Shown: positions 2,447-29,247 of the stretch, piece after piece
Numbering within the stretch: the first letter of the stretch is position 1
Layout of the letters: every line of letters starts with the position of its first letter
Origin: Escherichia coli
GTDB lineage: Bacteria; Pseudomonadota; Gammaproteobacteria; Enterobacterales; Enterobacteriaceae
Assembly (NCBI RefSeq): GCF_029227855.1
Contig: NZ_CP074358.1
Length of the DNA: 64,000 nucleotides
Strand: one strand, 5' to 3'
Notes under the pieces: generated by a model
What the model saw: only the letters and a program-made list of their open reading frames with translations
Database searches by the model: none
What the model was told of the DNA's origin: nothing
Translations under genes and position numbers: made by a program

Positions 2447-3538
2447 TTACAGATCTCCGTACAGGCAGCGCAGCCCGGTCAGGGCCTCCGCCAGCGGGCC
2501 TTCTTGACACCGCGTGGCGAGCTCCCGGACCAGCGTCTCAAAGGCCTCCGCCGGCATAAAAATCCGCAGGCCGTCTATCCCGAAGAAGCCCTCCGGCGTG
2601 ACGTTTCCGGGCGGGGAGAACATCACTCGCTCCCCCTGGTGACCGTGCGTCAGGGCTTCCGGATGCCGGGCATACAGCGTGAACAGGCCCAGCAGTTCGG
2701 ATAACGCTTCCCAGCCGTACGGCACCACGAAGTCCTGGCCGGTGATCAGCAGGTGCAGACGGGGTGTGGTGTACCAGGCCCCCGGGCGTTCTCCGGGGTG
2801 CTGGCCGTCAACGCGGATCTCCAGGCGCAGCGTGCCGGCCTCAATGGTTTCCGTGACGGCAGAAATAACCGGGCGCAGCTCCTGTGCCAGCGTTCTTGCC
2901 TGTTCTGTGTTCCAGTCCAGGCCGCGCAGCATCAACGGGAAAACAGCTTTCAGCCGCGGCAGGGTGAAGATTTCTGCCAGCACCGCGTCCGGCACCTCCG
3001 CCAGGCCAAAACAGTCGCTCTCGAGCGGACGCAGGAGGTGTTCGGCATACATCTGATCCACCACGGGGCGCAGCGCTGCCCGGAAGGCTTCAAACTCTTC
3101 CGTCCAGTTTTTCCCGGCCAGGCGGAAAATCCCCTTCAGGTAGTGACCGTCCACAGGGCGATCGTGCTCCACCTGCCAGGCCAGCAGGTTGCCAGTGATG
3201 TCCAGCAGCGTGTCCAGGGCCGGGAGTGTGGCCAGCCTATTATGCCCGCGCAGGAAGGCCTCCCTGACGTGAACCAGGACAAAGCGCAGTTCGTCGCGGG
3301 AGAGCGCTGACGTGCCGAAGGTCTGGCCCAGAATGATATGCCGGTACAGCTGCCGGACCGTGGCCTCCGGATCGGCAATGAGCTGAAAATACCCGTCACC
3401 GGGCGCGACCGTTTTCAGGCCGTCATCGAGGAAGCGTTCGGCTAGGGCGTTGACCGAAGTATTTTCCCGACCGGCACGCGTTTTCAGCGCCTCGATAAGT
3501 TTTTTGTGAAAACGCAGGTTAAGCTGGCTTAGCATCAT
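2447..3538 (-). CDS. pifC: 363 aa protein with N-terminal ribbon-helix-helix/Arc-like motif; probable PifC (RepC) autoregulator of the pif operon
   Basis: N-terminus LNLRFHKKLIEALKTRAGRENTSVNALAERFLDDGL resembles RHH DNA-binding domain; ~40 kDa; immediately upstream of and coupled to the KAP NTPase gene. Confidence 0.55.
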   Translation of the reverse strand: MMLSQLNLRFHKKLIEALKTRAGRENTSVNALAERFLDDGLKTVAPGDGYFQLIADPEATVRQLYRHIILGQTFGTSALSRDELRFVLVHVREAFLRGHNRLATLPALDTLLDITGNLLAWQVEHDRPVDGHYLKGIFRLAGKNWTEEFEAFRAALRPVVDQMYAEHLLRPLESDCFGLAEVPDAVLAEIFTLPRLKAVFPLMLRGLDWNTEQARTLAQELRPVISAVTETIEAGTLRLEIRVDGQHPGERPGAWYTTPRLHLLITGQDFVVPYGWEALSELLGLFTLYARHPEALTHGHQGERVMFSPPGNVTPEGFFGIDGLRIFMPAEAFETLVRELATRCQEGPLAEALTGLRCLYGDL

Positions 3539-3565
3539 CGATCCTTTAATGTTTGTTTTGTTCTT

Positions 3566-3582
3566 AATGCTAACCTAGCATT
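3566..3582. promoter_or_regulatory. Perfect palindrome aatgcta-acc-tagcatt in AT-rich region upstream of pifC; candidate operator (pifO-like)
   Basis: Inverted repeat read directly from sequence ~35 bp upstream of the pifC start on the - strand. Confidence 0.35.
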
Positions 3583-4220
3583 TTATTATTAGCTATTAAT
3601 CAGTTTTTTAGTTTTTGAAAATTGTGATGCTTCTAAAATTACTAAAATTGAGGATTTTAATGCTACAACAATGCCTGCCTCTTCTTATTTCTCCGGAGAT
3701 CCGAAAACCCCAAGTTCAGGATCTTCCTCTCCCCCCACACAACGCCACCTCCTGTAAGCACAATATGTGGTGCCGGATTCAGCTACTGATGACACTATAT
3801 GTTGTGTCATCTCCCTGACCTGTGATGCGTCGCGCAGGGGCGGAAAACAGCGATATGATGATTTCCTCAGCGTGGTACACTTCCGGAAACCCGTCAATAA
3901 CAGAAAAATCGGATCTGCCTGAAATGGGCATCCGGTAATTTAATGGCGTGGTTATATGCCTGCTTATTATCTGACAGGTGATGATTTATTTAGGGGAAAA
4001 TAATTCATGCTGACAGAGTGTTGTGCTGCCATGCGTAATAACTCTGAGCGACTGTTGCTTCCGGTATCAGTTGAGTGAGGATTTTCAGACCACCACGTTT
4101 TACTGACCAGTAAAAATTTTTTTTGCCCGCAAGGCTGACAAGTGACTTCTTTTAGAATTTCGGCATCCACAACCAATGGCAGGAAGCCCGATGCAAAAAT
4201 TTTTAAGGAGAGCTCTTTTA

Positions 4221-4460
4221 ATGAAAATTGCTCAGCAATTACTGGAAGCCGTTCTGCAATTTATGAATGCATCTGCAATGACTCAGGTGCTGACGTTGCT
4301 ATTCCTGGCTCTGATAATACAGGTACTGAAAACATTAATTACGGCGTGGATAGTAAGAAAACCATCTTCAGGAGAGATGGTTTTAGACCGGAAACCTGAC
4401 TCTGCCGGGCGTAAGGATCACTGCAGGCAGCTGTCTCAACAAAGGAAAAAACATGGCTGA
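4221..4460 (+). CDS. Small predicted membrane protein (79 aa), unknown function
   Basis: ATG 4221 preceded by aaggag; hydrophobic segment VLTLLFLALIIQVLKTLITAWIV; stop overlaps next start (ATGGCTGA). Confidence 0.35.
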   Translation: MKIAQQLLEAVLQFMNASAMTQVLTLLFLALIIQVLKTLITAWIVRKPSSGEMVLDRKPDSAGRKDHCRQLSQQRKKHG

Positions 4461-4742
4461 CTGGTTTATTGCAACTGAAGGTGTGAAGGTGGTGAAAGAT
4501 AGTGCCAGCCTGTGGCCGCAGATCATCACGGCGGTTTTGTCTGCCGGTACTGCATTTGGTGGTGTGTGGTACGGGCAGTGGCGGATAACACAGCGAGAGG
4601 AGGAAGCTGCAACAGCGAAGCTGGTCAGCGAACGTCTCTTTATTGCCACGGAGCTGGTTTTTCTGCTGGAGAGGTTTGCGCAGCGTTGTGCTCCAGCAGC
4701 AACAGCAACTGTGGAGCACGATCAGGATGGCAGAGGAGAAGC
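4453..4742 (+). pseudogene. Membrane-protein gene truncated by the IS3 insertion (about 96 native codons retained)
   Basis: Strong RBS aaaggaaaaaacATG; hydrophobic segment LWPQIITAVLSAGTAFGGVWYG; reading frame runs into the IS3 left inverted repeat and stops inside it. Confidence 0.4.
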
Positions 4743-4798
4743 TGATCTTACCCAGCAATAGTGGACACGCGGCTAAGTGAGTAAACTCTCAGTCAGAG

Positions 4799-5107
4799 GT
4801 GACTCACATGACAAAAACAGTATCAACCAGTAAAAAACCCCGTAAACAGCATTCGCCTGAATTTCGCAGTGAAGCCCTGAAGCTTGCTGAACGCATCGGT
4901 GTTACTGCCGCAGCCCGTGAACTCAGCCTGTATGAATCACAACTCTACAACTGGCGCAGTAAACAGCAAAATCAGCAGACGTCTTCTGAACGTGAACTGG
5001 AGATGTCTACCGAGATTGCACGTCTCAAACGCCAGCTGGCAGAACGGGATGAAGAGCTGGCTATCCTCCAAAAGGCCGCGACATACTTCGCGAAGCGCCT
5101 GAAATGA
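4799..5107 (+). CDS. IS3 OrfA (transposase N-terminal HTH part)
   Basis: 102 aa, helix-turn-helix and leucine-zipper-like C-terminus ([19 protein letters not shown]); inside the IS3 ends. Confidence 0.9.
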
Positions 5108-17004: not shown

Positions 17005-17169
17005 TACAGGGGCAGGCGGTGGAGGCCGCCTGTCAGTCCGCGCGAAAACCCCTGGCAGGCTGACGCCTGCCGGAAGGGAAGCGGACCACGCTGGCGCGTC
17101 GCCCGTTACCCTTCCCGTCTGTGATGTGTCTGACTCAGGAGTGTTTCTTTCTTATGTTATGGAACTGTT

Positions 17170-17625
17170 CCTGATGTTGTTGTTCCTTTATCTGCTGCTC
17201 TGATTCTGACTACTGCAGTGTTGTTCTGTCTGCCGGGCGCACCTTCGGCTCCCGGCATCCCGGCAAAAGGCCGCCGGGATGTAAGGGGCAACGCCGTTTC
17301 GCGCACGCGCTCTCCGTCGTTGCGGCGGGTCCCTGCTCATTGCCTGCCGGTGCCACACACCCGTATGAGTCCCTGTCGCCGGGGGCTGATACAGCCACAA
17401 CCTGCCGCACTGACTGTCCAGGGTAAATGAACAGCCCACAAAATTTTTTACCCAAAACCCGGTAAAAAATTTTGCGTTCTGCCCAGGACAGGTGCGTCAG
17501 GCCGTGGCAGTGATGCCCCTTGCGGCGAAGGTTCTCAAACGGGTGAAGTTCATACCACAGGGAATACAGCAGCAGGTTCCCGCGAAACGTCAAAACCGCG
17601 GCTCCCGAAACTCAACGGGTGATGT
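17170..17625. repeat. Frpo/ssi-like structured non-coding repeat, copy A (short form)
   Basis: Shares 5' block ctgattctgactactgcagtgttg...cgggcgcaccttcggctcccggc and 3' block with copies B and C; lacks ~190 bp internal block; hairpin 17437-17476. Confidence 0.6.
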
Positions 17626-17853
17626 TCTTTAAAAATCAGGATTTATTTCAGGCTCCGGCAATACGCATTTATGTGTTCTGTCAGTCATCCGGCTGGCAGG
17701 TAATGAGAACGCAGGAACAGAAGGAGGAAAACACCGGAGAACGTCAGACGCAGATATGAAAAAAGCAGGTCAGGGACCTGCTTAATCCACACCGCAGAGA
17801 CTGCACGAACAGTCTTTACGGTTTCATTAATTAACGTCATAAGAGGCTAAATT

Positions 17854-18084
17854 ATGACAGTAAGTATTGTTTCACCTTCCGCAGCGGCTGTAAAGCCCCG
17901 CCGTCATCCCCGTTGCAGACGCGAAGACATCCCCGCGCCGGAAATTGACCCCGTGCTGAAAGCCTTCGGGCGACACATTGCCCGGAGTTTTCACCGGGGG
18001 CGTGGTGTACACATCCCCGCCATGAAAAACACGGCCTTCGGGCAGGTGCTCCGCACACTCGAACTGAAACGCGCTTTTAACTGA
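17854..18084 (+). CDS. Small basic hypothetical protein (76 aa)
   Basis: First ORF after repeat copy A; RBS agagg about 10 nt upstream. Confidence 0.35.
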   Translation: MTVSIVSPSAAAVKPRRHPRCRREDIPAPEIDPVLKAFGRHIARSFHRGRGVHIPAMKNTAFGQVLRTLELKRAFN

Positions 18085-18135
18085 TGAGGTGAGCCGCCCC
18101 GCGAGGGGCGGCAACAGACGGAAGGAGAACATTTT

Positions 18136-19497
18136 ATGACATTAGCAGCAATCACCATGACCGCCCCGGAAGCCGCCAGCCCTGTGCAGATGTACCGCGC
18201 GACCTACTCACCGGATGACAACAAACTGCGCCTGTATGCCGTGTCACGTCTTGACTCGGAGACGTATAAAAAAGTGCATGATGCCGGTTTCCGCTGGGCA
18301 CCAAAACAGGCGCTGTTTGTCGCGCCAGCCTGGACACCGGGCCGGGAAGACGTGCTCCTCTCACTTGCCGGAGAGATTGAGGATGAAGACAGCACGCTCG
18401 CTGAACGTCAGGAAGCACGGGCGGAGCGGTTTACCGGATACAGCGGAAAGCGGGCCAGTGAATCCGCACAGGCACTTGATGAAGTGGAAAGACTGGCCGC
18501 GATGATCCCGCCCGGTCAGCCCATTCTTGTGGGGCATCACAGCGAACGCCGCACCCGTCGTGATGCGCAGCGTATTGAAAACGGCATGAAACGAGCCGTG
18601 ATGCTCTTTGAACGTGCGGAATACTGGGAAGAGCGGGCGCGGTCGGCACTGCTTCACGCGAAGTATAAAGAACGTCCGGACGTTCGCTGGCGTCGTATCA
18701 AAAAAATCGAAGCTGATTTGCGCAAGGCTGAAAAGACCATCGCGCAGTCGCAGAAATATCTGACGATGTGGCGGGCTGAATCGCTGGATCTGAATATGGC
18801 AAAACTCATCAGCAGTCATGACCATATCAGCGCCTGTTTCCCGCTGGATACGTATCCGCGCCCGGCAGAAAAAAGCCAGTATGAAGGAAGTCGATCGTTA
18901 TGGTCGGCCCTGGATGATGACATCATCACCACGGAGCAGGCCCGCGAAATTGCGATCCGCTGTCATGAACGGCAGATTCAGCATCAACAACGCTGGGTTA
19001 ACCACTATCAGAACCGCCTGATCTATGAGCGTGCCATGCTGGACGAAAGCGGCGGCGTGGTTACCCGGACACAGGATTTTGAGCCGGGCGGACAGGTTTT
19101 CAGCCGGGGCGAGTGGCTGACCATCATCCGTGTGAACAAAAGCAACGGGGCGGTGAGTTCAGTCACAACGCCAAATTACAGTTTTCTCGGGTACAGCGGC
19201 ACGATGAAAGTGACGCCCGATCGCATCACGGACTACAAAGCACCATCGGCAGAAGAGGCTGCCGTCGCCAGTCAGGCCGCGAAGCGTCCGCCGGTAGTCA
19301 ACTATCCGGGGGAAGGTTTCCGGGAAATGACAAAGGCACAGTGGGCCGCCCTGCCCCGGGACTGTAAGGCCGTGCGCAGTGTGGCAGAAGCAGAAGACCA
19401 CGGGGCATACCGGTACCGCCGCACAATGGACAATAATTTCCGCCTGGTGAATGTGTATATCACCGACATGAAAATCACGGAAATCCCACAGAAATAA
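18136..19497 (+). CDS. Conserved hypothetical protein, 453 aa (DUF3560-like large leading-region protein)
   Basis: Long ORF with RBS ggaaggaga; charged helical middle region; family assignment from memory only. Confidence 0.65.
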   Translation: MTLAAITMTAPEAASPVQMYRATYSPDDNKLRLYAVSRLDSETYKKVHDAGFRWAPKQALFVAPAWTPGREDVLLSLAGEIEDEDSTLAERQEARAERFTGYSGKRASESAQALDEVERLAAMIPPGQPILVGHHSERRTRRDAQRIENGMKRAVMLFERAEYWEERARSALLHAKYKERPDVRWRRIKKIEADLRKAEKTIAQSQKYLTMWRAESLDLNMAKLISSHDHISACFPLDTYPRPAEKSQYEGSRSLWSALDDDIITTEQAREIAIRCHERQIQHQQRWVNHYQNRLIYERAMLDESGGVVTRTQDFEPGGQVFSRGEWLTIIRVNKSNGAVSSVTTPNYSFLGYSGTMKVTPDRITDYKAPSAEEAAVASQAAKRPPVVNYPGEGFREMTKAQWAALPRDCKAVRSVAEAEDHGAYRYRRTMDNNFRLVNVYITDMKITEIPQK

Positions 19498-19544
19498 GGT
19501 ATATCCCCCCGGGAAAATCCCCGGAGGATGACGGAGATAATGAT

Positions 19545-20108
19545 ATGCACAGTCAGTTAAGAGAACGTATCCGGCTGATGCGCGCAAGGCTGGATAACGC
19601 CGCGCCGGTTGCTGAAATCCGGGCTGAATCTCAGCTTTTTGTGACTCCTGCCCCGGTCTGTGATCGCCTGGTGATGCTGGCGGAGATCAGCAACCGTGAT
19701 CACATTCTGGAACCCTCTGCCGGCACCGGGGCCATACTGCGGGCGATTCGGGATACCGCGCCGGGGGCCATGTGTGATGCGGTGGAAATCAACAGCGGGC
19801 TGGTCCGGTATCTGCGGGAAAATTTTAACGGTGTCAGGGTTCAGTGTGGCGACTTCATGGAATGGCAGCCAGTGCAGTATTACAGCCGGGTTATCATGAA
19901 TCCGCCGTTCAGCCACGGGCAGGATATCCGGCATATCCTGCGGGCCTTTTCCCTGTTGCGTCCGGGTGGCGTGCTGGTCGCCGTCTGTCTCAACGGACCA
20001 CGCCAGCAGGAGAAGCTGTTACCGTTTTCTGACGTCCGCGAGGAGCTGCCGCGCGGCACGTTTGCTTATACCGATGTCCCGACGATGATTATTCGTCTGC
20101 GTGCCTGA
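19545..20108 (+). CDS. Small SAM-dependent methyltransferase-like protein (187 aa), candidate second orphan methyltransferase
   Basis: Motif I EPSAGTGA and NPPF motif; RBS ggagg. Confidence 0.65.
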   Translation: MHSQLRERIRLMRARLDNAAPVAEIRAESQLFVTPAPVCDRLVMLAEISNRDHILEPSAGTGAILRAIRDTAPGAMCDAVEINSGLVRYLRENFNGVRVQCGDFMEWQPVQYYSRVIMNPPFSHGQDIRHILRAFSLLRPGGVLVAVCLNGPRQQEKLLPFSDVREELPRGTFAYTDVPTMIIRLRA

Positions 20109-20264: not shown

Positions 20265-20965
20265 GTTACTGATGATGTTGTTGTTCCTGCTACTGCTACT
20301 GCTACTGCTACTGCTACTGCTACTGTTCTTCTTTTTCCTGCTGCTCTGATTCTGACTACTGCAGTGTTGTCCTGTCTGCCGGGCGCACCTTCGGCTCCCG
20401 GCTGCCTGGCGGCATCCGGTCGTCAGGCCCGACTCCGACAGGCAGCTGCTGGCGCACCTGCCAGTCTCCGCCGAACCCGCTGGCGCGGTTTCGGGCTGTC
20501 GCTACGGTCCGATGCGTGAAAACCCCGGGCTTGCAGCGACCGTTCCGGTCGCGCCACCCTTGTCGCGCCGTGGCCTGCGCTCCTGGCATCCCGGCAAAAG
20601 GCCGCCGGGATGTAAGGGGCAACGCCGTTTCGCAAACCGCGCTTCACGTCGTTGCGGCGGGTCCCTGCCCGTTGTTCTGTCCGGTGCCATTCACCTGTTT
20701 AAGCCCCTGTCGCCGGGGGCAAAGACAGCCACAACCGTCTCCGCCAGTCCAGGGGTGAAATGTACATCCCGCAAAACTTTTTGCCCAAAAGCAGGCAAAA
20801 ACTTTTGCGGTCTGCCCCCGGACAGTCGTTTCCGTCCGTGGCAGTGATGCCCCTTGCGGCGAAGGTTCTCAAAAAGGTGATGGTGAATACCGGAGGGAAC
20901 AAAAGGCAGGTCCCCGCAAAACGTCAAAACCGCGGCTCCCGAAACTCAAAAGATGATGGGGGCTG
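20265..20965. repeat. Frpo/ssi-like structured non-coding repeat, copy B (long form), immediately upstream of ssb
   Basis: Near-identical to copy C over ~620 bp; hairpin ccgcaaaactttttgcc-caaaagca-ggcaaaaacttttgcgg at 20769-20810. Confidence 0.6.
20287..20325. repeat. Hexanucleotide microsatellite (CTGCTA)x6.5
   Basis: Six perfect tandem ctgcta units plus ctg, at the 5' edge of repeat copy B; absent from copies A and C. Confidence 0.9.
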
Positions 20966-20991
20966 AAAACATCAACAGAAGGAGGCACATC

Positions 20992-25056: not shown

Positions 25057-25249
25057 TGCGGCAACAATCACACGGATTTCCCGTGAACGGTCTGAATGAG
25101 CGGATTATTTTCAGGGAAAGTGAGTGTGGTCAGCGTGCAGGTATATGGGCTATGATGTGCCCGGCGCTTGAGGCTTTCTGCCTCATGACGTGAAGGTGGT
25201 TTGTTGCCGTGTTGTGTGGCAGAAAGAAGATAGCCCCGTAGTAAGTTAA

Positions 25250-25320
25250 TTTTCATTAACCACCACGAGGCATCCCTATGTCTAGTCCACATCAGGATAG
25301 CCTCTTACCGCGCTTTGCGC
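25250..25320 (-). ncRNA. sok: Candidate Sok-like antisense RNA of the hok/mok locus (approximate coordinates)
   Basis: Inferred from hok/sok architecture; region antisense to the mok translation-initiation region. Confidence 0.35.
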
Positions 25321-25490
25321 AAGGAGAAGAAGGCCATGAAACTACCACGAAGTTCCCTTGTCTGGTGTGTGTTGATCGTGTGTCTCACACTGTTGATATT
25401 CACTTATCTGACACGAAAATCGCTGTGCGAGATTCGTTACAGAGACGGACACAGGGAGGTGGCGGCTTTCATGGCTTACGAATCCGGTAA
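25278..25490 (+). CDS. mok: Mok-like overlapping reading frame (modulator of hok translation)
   Basis: 70-codon ORF overlapping hok in another frame, as in hok/sok loci. Confidence 0.5.
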
Positions 25491-25494: not shown

Positions 25495-25744
25495 CAACCT
25501 GGAGGCGGGCGCAGGCCCGCCTTTTCAGGACTGATGCTGGTCTGACTACTGAAGCGCCTTTATAAAGGGGCTGCTGGTTCGCCGGTAGCCCCTTTCTCCT
25601 TGCTGATGTTGTACGGGCATGAACAACCTGACTTCAGGAAGGTCGTTTCCCTTCAGGAACGGGGATGAACGCGCGCCTGCGGCGCCCGTTCTTTTCCCCC
25701 GCCTTCTCTGGTTATGGCCTGTCAGAAATCACATCACCTTCCCT

Positions 25745-26395
25745 GTGATTATTCTCTTTTTCTTCCTGCTCTGATTCTGACTACTGCAGTGTTGTCCTGT
25801 CTGCCGGGCGCACCTTCGGCTCCCGGCTGCCTGGCGGCATCCGGTCGTCAGGCCCGACTCCGACAGGCAGCTGCTGGCGCACCTGCCAGTCTCCGCCGAA
25901 CCCGCTGGCGCGGTTTCGGGCTGTCGCTACGGTCCGATGCGTGAAAACCCCGGGCTTGCAGCGACCGTTCCGGTCGCGCCGCCTCTGTCGCGCCGTGGCC
26001 TGCGCTCCTGGCATCCCGGCAAAAGGCCGCCGGGATGTAAGGGGCAACGCCGTTTCGCAAACCGCGCTTCACGTCGTTGCGGCGGGTCCCTGCCCGTTGT
26101 TCTGTCCGGTGCCATTCACCTGTTTAAGCCCCTGTCGCCGGGGGCTGATACAGCCACAACCTGCCGCACTGACTGTCCAGGGTAAATGAACAGCCCGCAA
26201 AACTTTTTGCCCAGAAGCAGGCAAAAACTTTTGCGGTCTGCCCCCGGACAGTCGTTTCCGGCCGTGGCAGTGATGCCCCATGCGGCGAAGGTTCTCAAAC
26301 AGGTGATGGTGAATACCGGAGGGAACAAAAGGCAGGTCCCCGCAAAACGTCAAAACCGCGGCTCCCGAAACTCAACAGATGATGGGGGCTGAAAA
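25745..26395. repeat. Frpo/ssi-like structured non-coding repeat, copy C (long form)
   Basis: Near-identical to copy B; hairpin 26195-26236; 3' part resembles copy A (ctgatacagccacaacctgccgcactgactgtccagggtaaatgaacagccc). Confidence 0.6.
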
Positions 26396-26416
26396 CCAGA
26401 GAGAGGAGAAAGCAGG

Positions 26417-26704
26417 ATGAGTACCCGAAATATCCAAGTTAACACCGCGTCGTACACGCTTCTTGTTGCCGGGAAGAAAAAAAACACCGGGGAAGAGTGG
26501 GACGTCCTGGAATTCAGCAGCCTGACTGAGCTGAAAAAATATCGCAAAAGCCACCCGGAAAAGATGGCCTTCAGTTATAGCTACGCGCTCAGTCAGGGTG
26601 TGGATAAGCAGTTCCGCCATATCAACATTGCGGAAGCCGATCACTTCAAACAGTTCCTGCGTCAGATTAAGCGTGCCGGCCTCGATATCCGGGCGATCTG
26701 CTGA
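26417..26704 (+). CDS. Small conserved leading-region protein (95 aa)
   Basis: ATG 26417 with aggagaaagcagg RBS directly after repeat copy C. Confidence 0.55.
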   Translation: MSTRNIQVNTASYTLLVAGKKKNTGEEWDVLEFSSLTELKKYRKSHPEKMAFSYSYALSQGVDKQFRHINIAEADHFKQFLRQIKRAGLDIRAIC

Positions 26705-26823
26705 CCGGATGTGATGAATACCCCTCCTGATTGTTGCAATCTTGTTAATGGAGATCGGGGGGGGATGATATTAAGCGGAAAAATTTTTTATTAAATTTAT
26801 TCTTTCATAAAGGAGTAGCTGTT

Positions 26824-27588
26824 ATGCGATTAGCTTCCCGTTTTGGTCGGTATAATTCCATCCGCCGTGAACGTCCTTTAACGGATGATGAATTAATGCA
26901 GTTCGTGCCTTCGGTATTTTCCGGTGATAAACCTGAGTCCCGGAGTGAACGTTATACGTATATTCCAACAATCAATATCATCAATAAGTTACGTGATGAA
27001 GGTTTCCAGCCATTCTTTGCCTGTCAGAGTCGGGTTCGTGATTTGGGACGTCGCGAATACAGTAAACATATGTTACGTCTTCGCAGGGAAGGGCATATTA
27101 ACGGACAGGAAGTTCCTGAAATTATCCTGCTTAATTCACATGATGGTTCATCCAGTTATCAGATGATCCCCGGAATTTTTCGTTTTGTCTGCACAAATGG
27201 CCTGGTGTGCGGAAATAATTTTGGCGAAATCCGCGTTCCACATAAAGGTGATATTGTCGGGCAGGTTATCGAGGGAGCGTATGAAGTGCTCGGTGTCTTT
27301 GATAAGGTCACTGATAATATGGAGGCGATGAAAGAAATTCATCTTAACAGTGACGAGCAACATTTATTTGGCAGAGCTGCACTGATGGTCAGGTATGAAG
27401 ATGAAAATAAAACGCCAGTGACACCTGAACAGATAATTATTCCCCGTCGTCGGGAAGACAAACAGAACGATCTCTGGACAACCTGGCAGCGGGTTCAGGA
27501 GAATATGATAAAAGGTGGATTATCGGGGCGAAGTGCCTCCGGAAAAATACCAGGACAAGAGCCATTACAGGTATTGATGGTGATATAA
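26824..27588 (+). CDS. Conserved leading-region protein (254 aa), oriT-proximal
   Basis: RBS aaaggag; no catalytic motif recognised. Confidence 0.6.
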   Translation: MRLASRFGRYNSIRRERPLTDDELMQFVPSVFSGDKPESRSERYTYIPTINIINKLRDEGFQPFFACQSRVRDLGRREYSKHMLRLRREGHINGQEVPEIILLNSHDGSSSYQMIPGIFRFVCTNGLVCGNNFGEIRVPHKGDIVGQVIEGAYEVLGVFDKVTDNMEAMKEIHLNSDEQHLFGRAALMVRYEDENKTPVTPEQIIIPRRREDKQNDLWTTWQRVQENMIKGGLSGRSASGKIPGQEPLQVLMVI

Positions 27589-27940
27589 GAATCAACAAGG
27601 CGTTATGGGTGATTGCCGAACAGTTCAGAAAGTGGAAGTCATGATAATATAAGTAAAGCCCCGAAAAAATTTTCGGGGCTTTACTTATATTATCATTTTT
27701 CGGCATTGCTGTGTCGTCTGATATACCTCAATTTCATCAACCGGCTTTCCGGTTGTCTGTAAATATTGTGCCCGCGAAAAATGGTCTGGCAGGAGGCTGC
27801 GCAGTTACCGGGTATATATAAGATGGGTTCCCGCTTCGCGGGGCTTCGGCCAGTCAGTATTGTCACTCATATGATATTTTTGTGTGTGGCCTTCCATGCC
27901 GCTTTTGCGGCATAACCGGTATCTGACAATGTCTGTAAGA

Positions 27941-28450
27941 TTAATTGTTCTGCACGCTGTTAATTTCCGGAAGTGATTTCTTCGTGGCCGGAAGCCGGAT
28001 ACCTTTACTGCTTTTTATCCCGGTATAAATCCGGTAAACATCTGATGCGTAGGCAAGACGTCTCTGGTTCTGGCGTTCGGTTTTCCTGAATCCGGCATTG
28101 TATGCACCAACGGCCTCCCAGGTGACGCCCCATTTTTTAAATGCTATTGCCAGATAATAAGCACCGGTATAAATGTTCATGCAGGGATCTGTTGTCAGAT
28201 GTTCTGGCTTAATTCCGTAGCGGGCCAGTTCGTTAAAATGCTGGGAATCTACCTGCATCAGTCCGCTGCCATATCCCGTTACCGGATTAATACCGATGGC
28301 ATTAACCCGGTAACGGGATTCTTGCCATGATATTGCTCTCAGTAAATCAGGATCTATTTTGTAATCCCGGCCTGCAAGATCAAAGCAATCAGTGGCCTGG
28401 CAGATCTCATTTATAAACATCAGGCAGATGGCTAACATCCATTTTTTCAT
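27941..28450 (-). CDS. Lytic transglycosylase (F plasmid gene X / orf169 / P19 family), 169 aa
   Basis: Signal peptide [19 protein letters not shown]; SLT motifs ISWQESRY and GLMQV; start moved to MKKW (ATG 28450). Confidence 0.85.
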
Positions 28451-28499
28451 TTTTCCACCTCTGGTGACTTTATCCGTAAATAATTTAACCCACTCCACA

Positions 28500-28860
28500 A
28501 AAAGGCTCAACAGGTTGGTGGTTCTCACCACCAAAAGCACCACACCCCACGCAAAAACAAGTTTTTGCTGATTTTTCTTTATAAATAGAGAGTTATGAAA
28601 AATTAGTTTCTCTTACTCTCTTTATGATATTTAAAAAAGCGGTGTCGGCGCGGCTACAACAACGCGCCGACACCGCTTTGTAGGGGTGGTGCTGACTATT
28701 TTTATAAAAAACATTATTTTATATTAGGGGTGCTGCTAGCGGCGCGGTGTGTTTTTTTATAGGATACCGCTAGGGGCGCTGCTAGCGGTGCGTCCCTGTT
28801 TGCATTATGAATTTTAGTGTTTCGAAATTAACTTTATTTTATGTTCAAAAAAGGTAATCT
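28500..28860. other. oriT: Origin of transfer (oriT) with F-type nic region and inverted/direct repeats
   Basis: Bottom strand carries ttgcgtggggtgtggtgcttttggtggtgagaacc (F-like nic sequence, nick near 28540/28541); 14-bp inverted repeat gcggtgtcggcgcg/cgcgccgacaccgc at 28639-28676; direct repeats gctgctagcgg(c/t)gcg. Confidence 0.75.
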
Positions 28861-28863
28861 CTA

Positions 28864-29247
28864 ATGGCTAAGGTGAACCTGTATATCAGCAATGATGCCT
28901 ATGAAAAAATAAATGCGATTATTGAGAAGCGTCGACAGGAAGGGGCAAGGGAAAAAGATGTCAGTTTTTCAGCAACAGCTTCAATGCTTCTTGAACTGGG
29001 GCTTCGTGTACATGAGGCTCAGATGGAGCGTAAAGAGTCTGCATTTAATCAGACTGAGTTTAATAAATTGCTTCTTGAATGCGTTGTAAAAACACAATCA
29101 TCAGTAGCGAAAATTTTGGGTATTGAGTCTCTCAGTCCTCATGTCTCCGGAAATCCAAAGTTTGAATATGCCAATATGGTTGAAGATATCAGGGAGAAGG
29201 TATCATCTGAGATGGAACGATTTTTTCCAAAAAATGATGATGAATAA
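28864..29247 (+). CDS. traM: TraM relaxosome accessory protein
   Basis: 127 aa matching recalled F TraM (MAKVNLYISNDAYEKINAIIEKRRQEGAREKDVSFSATASMLLELGL...). Confidence 0.95.
   Translation: MAKVNLYISNDAYEKINAIIEKRRQEGAREKDVSFSATASMLLELGLRVHEAQMERKESAFNQTEFNKLLLECVVKTQSSVAKILGIESLSPHVSGNPKFEYANMVEDIREKVSSEMERFFPKNDDE

Follow-up and report, generated by a model that had tools for sequence, protein, structure and literature searches.

The closest described counterpart of the locus considered here is the Frpo1-ygeA-ygeB unit of plasmid F (NC_002483, about 63600-65259), whose promoter is also known as ssp1a. Frpo and ssi elements together form the class 1 single-stranded DNA promoters (PMC12672017). 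According to Couturier et al. 2023 (PMC9849209), the source of all statements about F mutants and fusions below, this unit is the one in the leading region whose loss brings the largest drop in transconjugant yield. Production of a YgeA-sfGFP fusion precedes the conversion of the single strand to duplex; it is highest at about 5 min and has ceased by 25-35 min. The fusion is Frpo1-dependent and absent from donors, and neither YgeA nor YgeB is detected in vegetative donors. YgfA, the product of gene X, is made only after strand conversion. Transconjugants after 3 h amounted to 92.6% for the wild type, 25.2% for ΔFrpo1, 32.7% for ΔFrpo1ΔygeAB, 14.5% for ΔFrpo1ΔygeA and 3.9% for ΔygeA, apparently in matings between laboratory strains of E. 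coli K-12, and the construction of ΔygeB alone failed. In Wen et al. 2025 (PMC12672017), recipient RNA-seq revealed recipient-specific transcripts of the genes that Frpo1 and Frpo2 control, those from Frpo1 being early. Early strand conversion was located at ygeB, downstream of ssp1a, with 48% of conversion events at ygeB early on, and rifampicin abolishes these events (Fraikin et al. 2026, bioRxiv 10.64898/2026.01.09.698686), which is consistent with priming by the ssp1a transcript. These three papers assign no biochemical function to YgeA or YgeB, and full-text literature searches (DUF932 with leading region; orf273/orf95; yubO/yubP) found no other functional study.

A second point of comparison is provided by ssi1-3 of ColIb-P9 and pESBL, which drive the ssb, psiB and ardA operons. 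Likened here by description, these IncI1 elements form a long imperfect hairpin in the transferred strand (T-strand) upstream of co-oriented leading genes, as in the locus described below, and give a transient burst of expression in transconjugants (PMC12672017). Their cargo genes differ from those considered here, and no ardA is present in the window, the whole stretch of 64,000 nucleotides of E. coli contig NZ_CP074358.1 that was analysed.

The window contains hok/sok, a Frpo-like repeat, a gene of 95 aa, a DUF932 gene, an SLT gene, oriT and traM in the order seen in F and in thousands of IncF plasmids (Table 1). The annotations of plasmid F and of pHH107-2, a close relative, list hok, a hypothetical 95-aa gene, a 273-aa DUF932 gene, the SLT gene and traM, and in both of these plasmids, as in the window, the two middle genes sit between hok/sok and gene X/oriT and are transcribed towards oriT. 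By gene order and protein identity, the two ORFs are the conserved and already known F-type plasmid genes ygeA and ygeB. These names are those of the F literature and were assigned here by gene order (PMC9849209); yubO and yubP are older annotation names, and yubQ is the X polypeptide (PMC3438092). The earlier note had pointed to two ORFs on the plus strand with strong ribosome-binding sites, directly downstream of a Frpo-like repeat. The list of open reading frames agrees on both, each is preceded by a Shine-Dalgarno sequence 8 nt before its ATG, and the repeat upstream is the third copy in the window, copy C. The description of the ORFs as uncharacterised does not hold, since work on plasmid F has already named both genes and characterised them in part. 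The window is thus recognisable as an IncF-type plasmid leading region carrying the Frpo1-ygeA-ygeB module, and only the probably damaged ygeB of this copy goes beyond the published knowledge of the locus.

Table 1. Features of the leading region between sok and the start of the transfer genes (window coordinates)
Feature	Position	Strand	Basis or remark
sok	25162-25338		
Repeat copy C, homologue of F Frpo1 (ssp1a), class 1 single-stranded DNA promoter by homology	25735-26396	-	core hairpin about 25990-26400
Shine-Dalgarno sequence of ygeA, GAGGAG	26403-26408	+	8 nt before ATG; read from sequence
ygeA (yubO), 95 aa, pI 9.6	26417-26704	+	92/95 identical to F protein
Shine-Dalgarno sequence of ygeB, AAGGAG	26810-26815	+	8 nt before ATG; read from sequence
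ygeB (yubP), DUF932, 273 aa in relatives	26824-27644 (window frame ends 27588, 254 aa)	+	PF06067
ygeB frameshift site, GG vs GGG in relatives	27541-27542	+	alignment to pHH107-2
Near-perfect palindrome, 20-bp stem and T run	27645-27692	.	terminator scan
Gene X (ygfA, yubQ, orf169), lytic transglycosylase	27941-28450	-	SLT annotation in relatives, IagB-like NCBIfam match
oriT nic-site motif GCGTGGGGTGTGGTGCTTT	28534-28552	-	one exact match, none expected by chance
traM	28864-29247	+	followed by traJ, traY and traA, also +

The module is widespread. The 2.8-kb segment 25800-28600 matches at least 5000 plasmid records at 90-99% identity, and at least 3822 of these cover 80% or more of it at one place; the ygeA-ygeB part is present at a coverage of at least 80% in 2304 of the 5426 complete E. 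coli genomes. The best PLSDB match to the window plasmid shows 97.1% identity over 22 kb. Gene order, orientation and neighbours are alike in F and the window, and in each the T-strand is the template for both genes. The differences lie in the repeats and in ygeB: the window plasmid possesses a third class 1 copy, its Frpo1 homologue is a mosaic of Frpo1-type and Frpo2-type segments, and its ygeB has a private 1-bp deletion (254 aa) and a rare H37P substitution.

The three repeat copies of the window are located at about 17164-17636 (A), at 20310-20970 (B) and in front of ygeA (C). The core of copy C (25990-26400) is identical to F Frpo1 in 384 of 420 alignment columns (about 91%), to copy B in 388 of 414 and to copy A in 342 of 415 (82%). 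The copies were folded as single-stranded DNA, with the minus strand representing the T-strand. The minus strand of each copy is predicted to form one long imperfect hairpin, with folding energies of -127.6 kcal/mol for copy C (z=-10.4; none of 100 shuffled sequences as stable), -117.8 kcal/mol for copy B (z=-8.8) and -114.6 kcal/mol for copy A (z=-10.2); the plus strand of copy C reaches -111.8 kcal/mol (z=-7.9). Across copies A, B and C and the Frpo1 and Frpo2 of F, 5 of the 148 predicted pairs are compensatory. Within 26100-26260, the inner left arm of copy C resembles copy B and F Frpo1, and the inner right arm resembles copy A and F Frpo2. Copy C therefore looks like a recombinant, and despite the mosaic arms its hairpin is the most stable of the three. 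A simple scan of the plus strand upstream of ygeA revealed no sigma-70-like duplex promoter.

To our knowledge, F has been described with only two such promoters. Downstream of copy A of the window, the stretch 17854-20108 contains a 76-aa ORF, a 453-aa ORF to which the annotation of a relative assigns DUF3560, and a gene for a small SAM methyltransferase; a match to the Rfam family AS-pc01 'antisense to pHK01_035' (98.9 bits; 17760-17859, minus strand) is found between copy A and the 76-aa ORF. Two ORFs of 68 aa are situated wholly within Frpo hairpins (26186-26392 and 20760-20966, plus strand) and correspond to RefSeq hypothetical proteins in relatives, for example WP_000547968.1; rather than genes, they are probably spurious frames that arise from the repeat structure.

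The direction of transfer follows from oriT. During conjugation, the nicked strand leaves with its 5' end first. The nic motif of F occurs once in the window, as an exact match on the minus strand, in agreement with the polarity proposed by the earlier note. By analogy with F and its TraI, we take the nick to fall after GTGT, between 28542 and 28541 of the minus strand. With the motif in this orientation, the T-strand serves as template for ygeA and ygeB, and with the 5' end leading, the order of entry is gene X, ygeB, ygeA and repeat C. The two ORFs are thus not literally the first genes to enter, as the same note had it, but the second and third, because gene X precedes them. The coding strand of gene X is the T-strand itself, so the T-strand provides no template for this gene; ygeA and ygeB are the first genes transcribable from the incoming single strand. 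Read from a GTG, the longest ORF of gene X (27941-28543, minus strand) has 200 aa and extends across the nic site; a start at the ATG of position 28450 yields the 169 aa expected for orf169, and RefSeq relatives have 196-200 aa. Between the convergent ygeB and gene X, directly after the restored stop codon of ygeB, begins the palindrome with arms of at least 20 bp (TAATATAAGTAAAGCCCCGAAAA / TTTTCGGGGCTTTACTTATATTA), likely a bidirectional terminator for the two genes.

These elements suggest the following course of events. The minus strand would be nicked at oriT (about 28542), and the recipient would receive gene X, ygeB, ygeA and copy C in this order, 5' end first. Once about 2.5 kb are inside, the single-stranded segment 25990-26400 would fold into a long imperfect hairpin mimicking a duplex sigma-70 promoter, at which the host RNA polymerase would start, with the T-strand as template, and read back towards oriT. 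A single mRNA would cover ygeA and ygeB and end at the palindrome. Complementary-strand synthesis would then destroy the hairpin and switch the promoter off, so that synthesis of the two proteins would be confined to a brief pulse in newly formed transconjugants. The polarity of these steps, the predicted fold and the candidate terminator are read directly from the window. Promoter activity, transcription of the T-strand and the shut-off come from experiments on F and would extend to the window by orthology; on this ground we regard the mechanism of expression as secure. The locus is very probably best explained as the Frpo1-ygeA-ygeB module in the leading region of an IncF plasmid. Against this explanation stands the hairpin promoter itself, in which the only good -35 match is TTGACG at about 26353-26348, in the 5' arm of the T-strand hairpin, and no convincing -10 element was placed at 16-18 nt from it.

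YgeA of the window agrees with the protein of F (NC_002483 64032-64319) in 92 of 95 residues. Its family is small and found chiefly on Enterobacterales plasmids. At 90% identity it comprises 163 clusters, and a profile search of 1.84 billion proteins yielded 83 representatives at 50% identity, all small and unannotated. E48, Y54, Y56, H76 and F80 are invariant, also in distant members down to 26% identity. No significant match to YgeA was found in Pfam, NCBIfam, PHROGs, PADLOC or PDB, with the single sequence or with a profile. One distant homologue lies beside SLT and TraM genes in another F-like plasmid with no DUF932 gene, and another is carried by a small Rep3 plasmid; homologues with no neighbouring DUF932 gene imply that YgeA is not tied to YgeB. 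The regions upstream of two distant ygeA homologues (locus positions 3230-4000 and 3360-4000) have conserved blocks in common, for example AAATCACGCyCAGrAyGTCGCTGyGCGCCAT, fold better than shuffled sequences (z=-4.0 and -4.8), and may represent another class of single-strand promoter. The conserved block was absent from the window. The hairpin predicted between ygeA and ygeB in the window is indistinguishable from shuffled sequences (z=-1.6). In the conjugative IncF plasmid pMRGN1031 (NZ_CP019561.1), an inserted element of the IS110 family (extracted-locus 1040-2044) separates ygeA from the Frpo-like repeat, and NZ_CP116982.1 displays the same pattern; the junction between promoter and gene is therefore disrupted in some natural plasmids.

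The 254-aa ORF noted earlier is present as read, but alignment with relatives reveals it to be a frameshifted gene of 273 aa. Positions 27540-27547 read CCGGAAAAA in the window and CCGGGAAAAA in relatives, with one G missing in the alignment to pHH107-2. With this G restored, the frame runs to the TGA at 27642-27644, and the protein is identical to that of F (NC_002483 64438-65259) in 269 of 273 positions. In the window, the frame shifts after residue 241, and the 32 residues 242-273 are replaced by 13 unrelated ones. The lost segment contains a confidently predicted terminal helix (251-272) and the residues D254, N258, A260, L261 and W262, invariant in 34 homologues. Truncated in this way, ygeB of the window has probably lost its activity, provided that the deletion is not an error of sequencing. 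None of the 3233 E. coli records holding the stretch carries the deletion; the best full-length PLSDB matches are all one position off the window, consistent with an extra G, and no full-length exact match to the window ygeB was found among the matches listed from 4005 PLSDB records. The spacer between ygeA and ygeB (26750-26757) has eight G in place of the seven in relatives. Both differences in length from relatives are thus homopolymer changes (G8/G7 and G2/G3) within 1.2 kb, a pattern typical of sequencing error; since both are homopolymeric, a sequencing error and a real mutation each fit the deletion. Codon 37 of ygeB is CCT (Pro; 26932-26934), where all 34 diverse homologues have His; H37P is shared by two of 2583 PLSDB records (CP057128.1 and CP057601.1), and ygeB of CP057128.1 is full length.

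The statement that no motif was recognised in the two ORFs stands for the 95-aa protein, which has no family match, and falls for the longer one, which belongs to DUF932 (PF06067): the window ORF matches model positions 3-211 of 227 (E=9.7e-49), and an intact relative matches positions 1-227 (E=2.8e-52). The ORF also matches a PHROG of unknown function (E=6e-138). The domain searches proposed in the earlier note thus identify the family of YgeB and none for YgeA, and neither search yields a function. YgeB has a pI of 9.3 and conserved polar residues C67, H106-D107, C123, N125 and H140. Its predicted structure (pLDDT 73) is weak in the four-stranded sheet and its loop 122-135 and good in the helical C-terminal half. 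It displays no significant similarity to Rad52-like annealing proteins or to the DNA-end-binding C-terminal domain of TnsE. Profile matches to sugar epimerases in PDB (E about 0.007, 70 residues) were rejected as due to chance. Neither for YgeA nor for YgeB did structure prediction or searches by fold, profile and family point to a function.

The YgeB family is large (6287 clusters), and members of it occur in conjugative plasmids, integrative islands and jumbo phages, next to anti-restriction genes or in DNA that may be early to enter the cell. The paralogues of E. coli chromosomal islands (YfjQ/YafZ type) are 53-56% identical to YgeB, of similar length and in the same Pfam family. They head a co-directional block in mobile DNA, in which, at two loci, DUF932 is followed by Antirestrict (PF03230) or YfjT, RadC, DUF987 and CbeA/CbtA. 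In contrast to ygeB, no oriT follows them, and neither a YgeA gene nor a Frpo-like hairpin was seen beside them. Rak2-like jumbo phages, where the vehicle is a phage and not a plasmid, carry DUF932 genes 36-42% identical to YgeB over more than 90% of its length. One of these, CBB_45 of Pectobacterium phage vB_PcaM_CBB (KU574722.1; extracted-locus 3968-4855; 36% identical), is contained in the terminal 'redundant repeat' (22,456 bp) of this 378-kb jumbo phage, and in phages related to CBB the DUF932 gene is 2-23 kb from the start of the record. The CBB terminal repeat may be among the first DNA to reach the cell. Such surroundings are compatible with a role during DNA entry, although they do not specify what it is. 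Mutations in trbE and the loss of a DUF932 start codon were jointly selected in an integrated plasmid of Variovorax after phage exposure (bioRxiv 10.1101/2025.06.20.660599).

The very early function that had been suggested for the two genes is supported, as regards an early role in the recipient, by the experiments on the F locus, which is 97-99% identical, and we infer that the products help the plasmid to establish itself. How they do so can be read in several ways. The earlier note suggested dedicated anti-defence proteins, with YgeA, YgeB or both acting against restriction, CRISPR or other recipient immunity. Leading regions are enriched in anti-defence genes under Frpo-type promoters (PMC11541004), and in chromosomal islands DUF932 paralogues directly precede Antirestrict (PF03230) genes, which points the same way, as does the homologue in the CBB terminal repeat. 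However, in the F study the ΔFrpo1 and ΔygeA phenotypes appear in what seem to be K-12 x K-12 matings, where no barrier to foreign DNA is expected (PMC9849209); such defects in isogenic matings support a role in early establishment and do not support a purely anti-defence one. Searches of Pfam, NCBIfam and PADLOC returned no anti-restriction (ArdA, ArdB/KlcA, PsiB), Acr or PADLOC family match, and both proteins are basic (pI 9.6 and 9.3), unlike acidic DNA-mimic inhibitors. A dedicated anti-defence role is thus neither demonstrated nor favoured, and we consider it unlikely. Somewhat less likely still is that the cis-acting element is what matters, the hairpin serving mainly to make an RNA primer with which synthesis of the complementary strand begins near oriT, and the ORFs being of minor importance. 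The original description of Frpo was that of a promoter that generates primers (Masai and Arai 1997, cited in PMC12672017 and bioRxiv 10.64898/2026.01.09.698686). The rifampicin-sensitive early conversions at ygeB (48%; bioRxiv 10.64898/2026.01.09.698686) agree with this reading; natural plasmids also tolerate the IS110-family insertion between repeat and ygeA, and the truncated ygeB of the window. Yet ΔygeA alone (3.9%) is more harmful to F than ΔFrpo1 (25%; PMC9849209), both proteins are conserved, with invariant residues, down to about 26-40% identity, and homologues of ygeB form thousands of clusters.

The same yields invite an explanation by a toxin and its antidote, or by a pair balanced in dosage, with YgeB damaging the new host if it is made without YgeA. 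According to PMC9849209, ΔygeA (3.9%) falls below both ΔFrpo1ΔygeA (14.5%) and ΔFrpo1ΔygeAB (33%), so that ygeB in the absence of ygeA looks deleterious. The same source, however, reports that ΔygeB, which should be easy to make if it removes a toxin gene, could not be constructed, and that neither protein was detected in vegetative donors. Pfam and NCBIfam returned no toxin-antitoxin family match for either protein, and ygeA and DUF932 genes occur apart, so their pairing is not obligate. We regard a toxic pair as improbable, to about the same degree as the purely cis-acting primer. Most doubtful of all, YgeB might promote the expression or assembly of the transfer apparatus and so let new transconjugants turn into donors sooner, the yields of the F mutants then reflecting reduced secondary spread. 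The selection of DUF932 start-codon loss together with trbE mutations in Variovorax (bioRxiv 10.1101/2025.06.20.660599) would agree with this, as would the scoring of F yields after 3 h of mating, with secondary transfer contributing (PMC9849209); this support is indirect, the first item being one preprint on a distant homologue, and DUF932 is also found in non-conjugative islands and in jumbo phages.

We prefer, though only tentatively, to see in YgeB an 'entry-phase' factor directed at nucleic acid and in YgeA its modulator. YgeB, with its DUF932 domain, would belong to a kind of factor used by many invading DNAs, and YgeA would be a small plasmid-specific partner tempering it. The basic character of both proteins is in line with this, as is the occurrence of DUF932 paralogues at the head of island blocks with an anti-restriction gene and, in one case, in the terminal repeat of a jumbo phage; the tempering of YgeB by YgeA finds support in F, where the loss of ygeA is worse than the loss of both genes (PMC9849209). 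On the other side, a YgeA homologue occurs beside SLT and TraM with no DUF932 gene, and most DUF932 genes have no YgeA gene nearby; the two are therefore separable, and the idea of a partnership is weakened. Tempering of YgeB by YgeA also leaves the failed construction of F ΔygeB unexplained, yet ygeB of the window appears to be naturally truncated. In a broader form, which we hold to be unlikely, DUF932 proteins would be general entry-phase factors of invading DNA, acting in its first minutes on nucleic acid or on a host target, with YgeA as a plasmid-specific modulator.

If DUF932 proteins are indeed entry-phase factors, a lineage with a naturally truncated ygeB would be one that now does without this step. 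The module is carried by roughly 40-50% of complete E. coli genomes and by thousands of resistance and virulence plasmids. Knowledge of the activities of YgeA and YgeB would close a gap in the understanding of how IncF plasmids become established after transfer, and might yield a target for limiting the spread of these plasmids.
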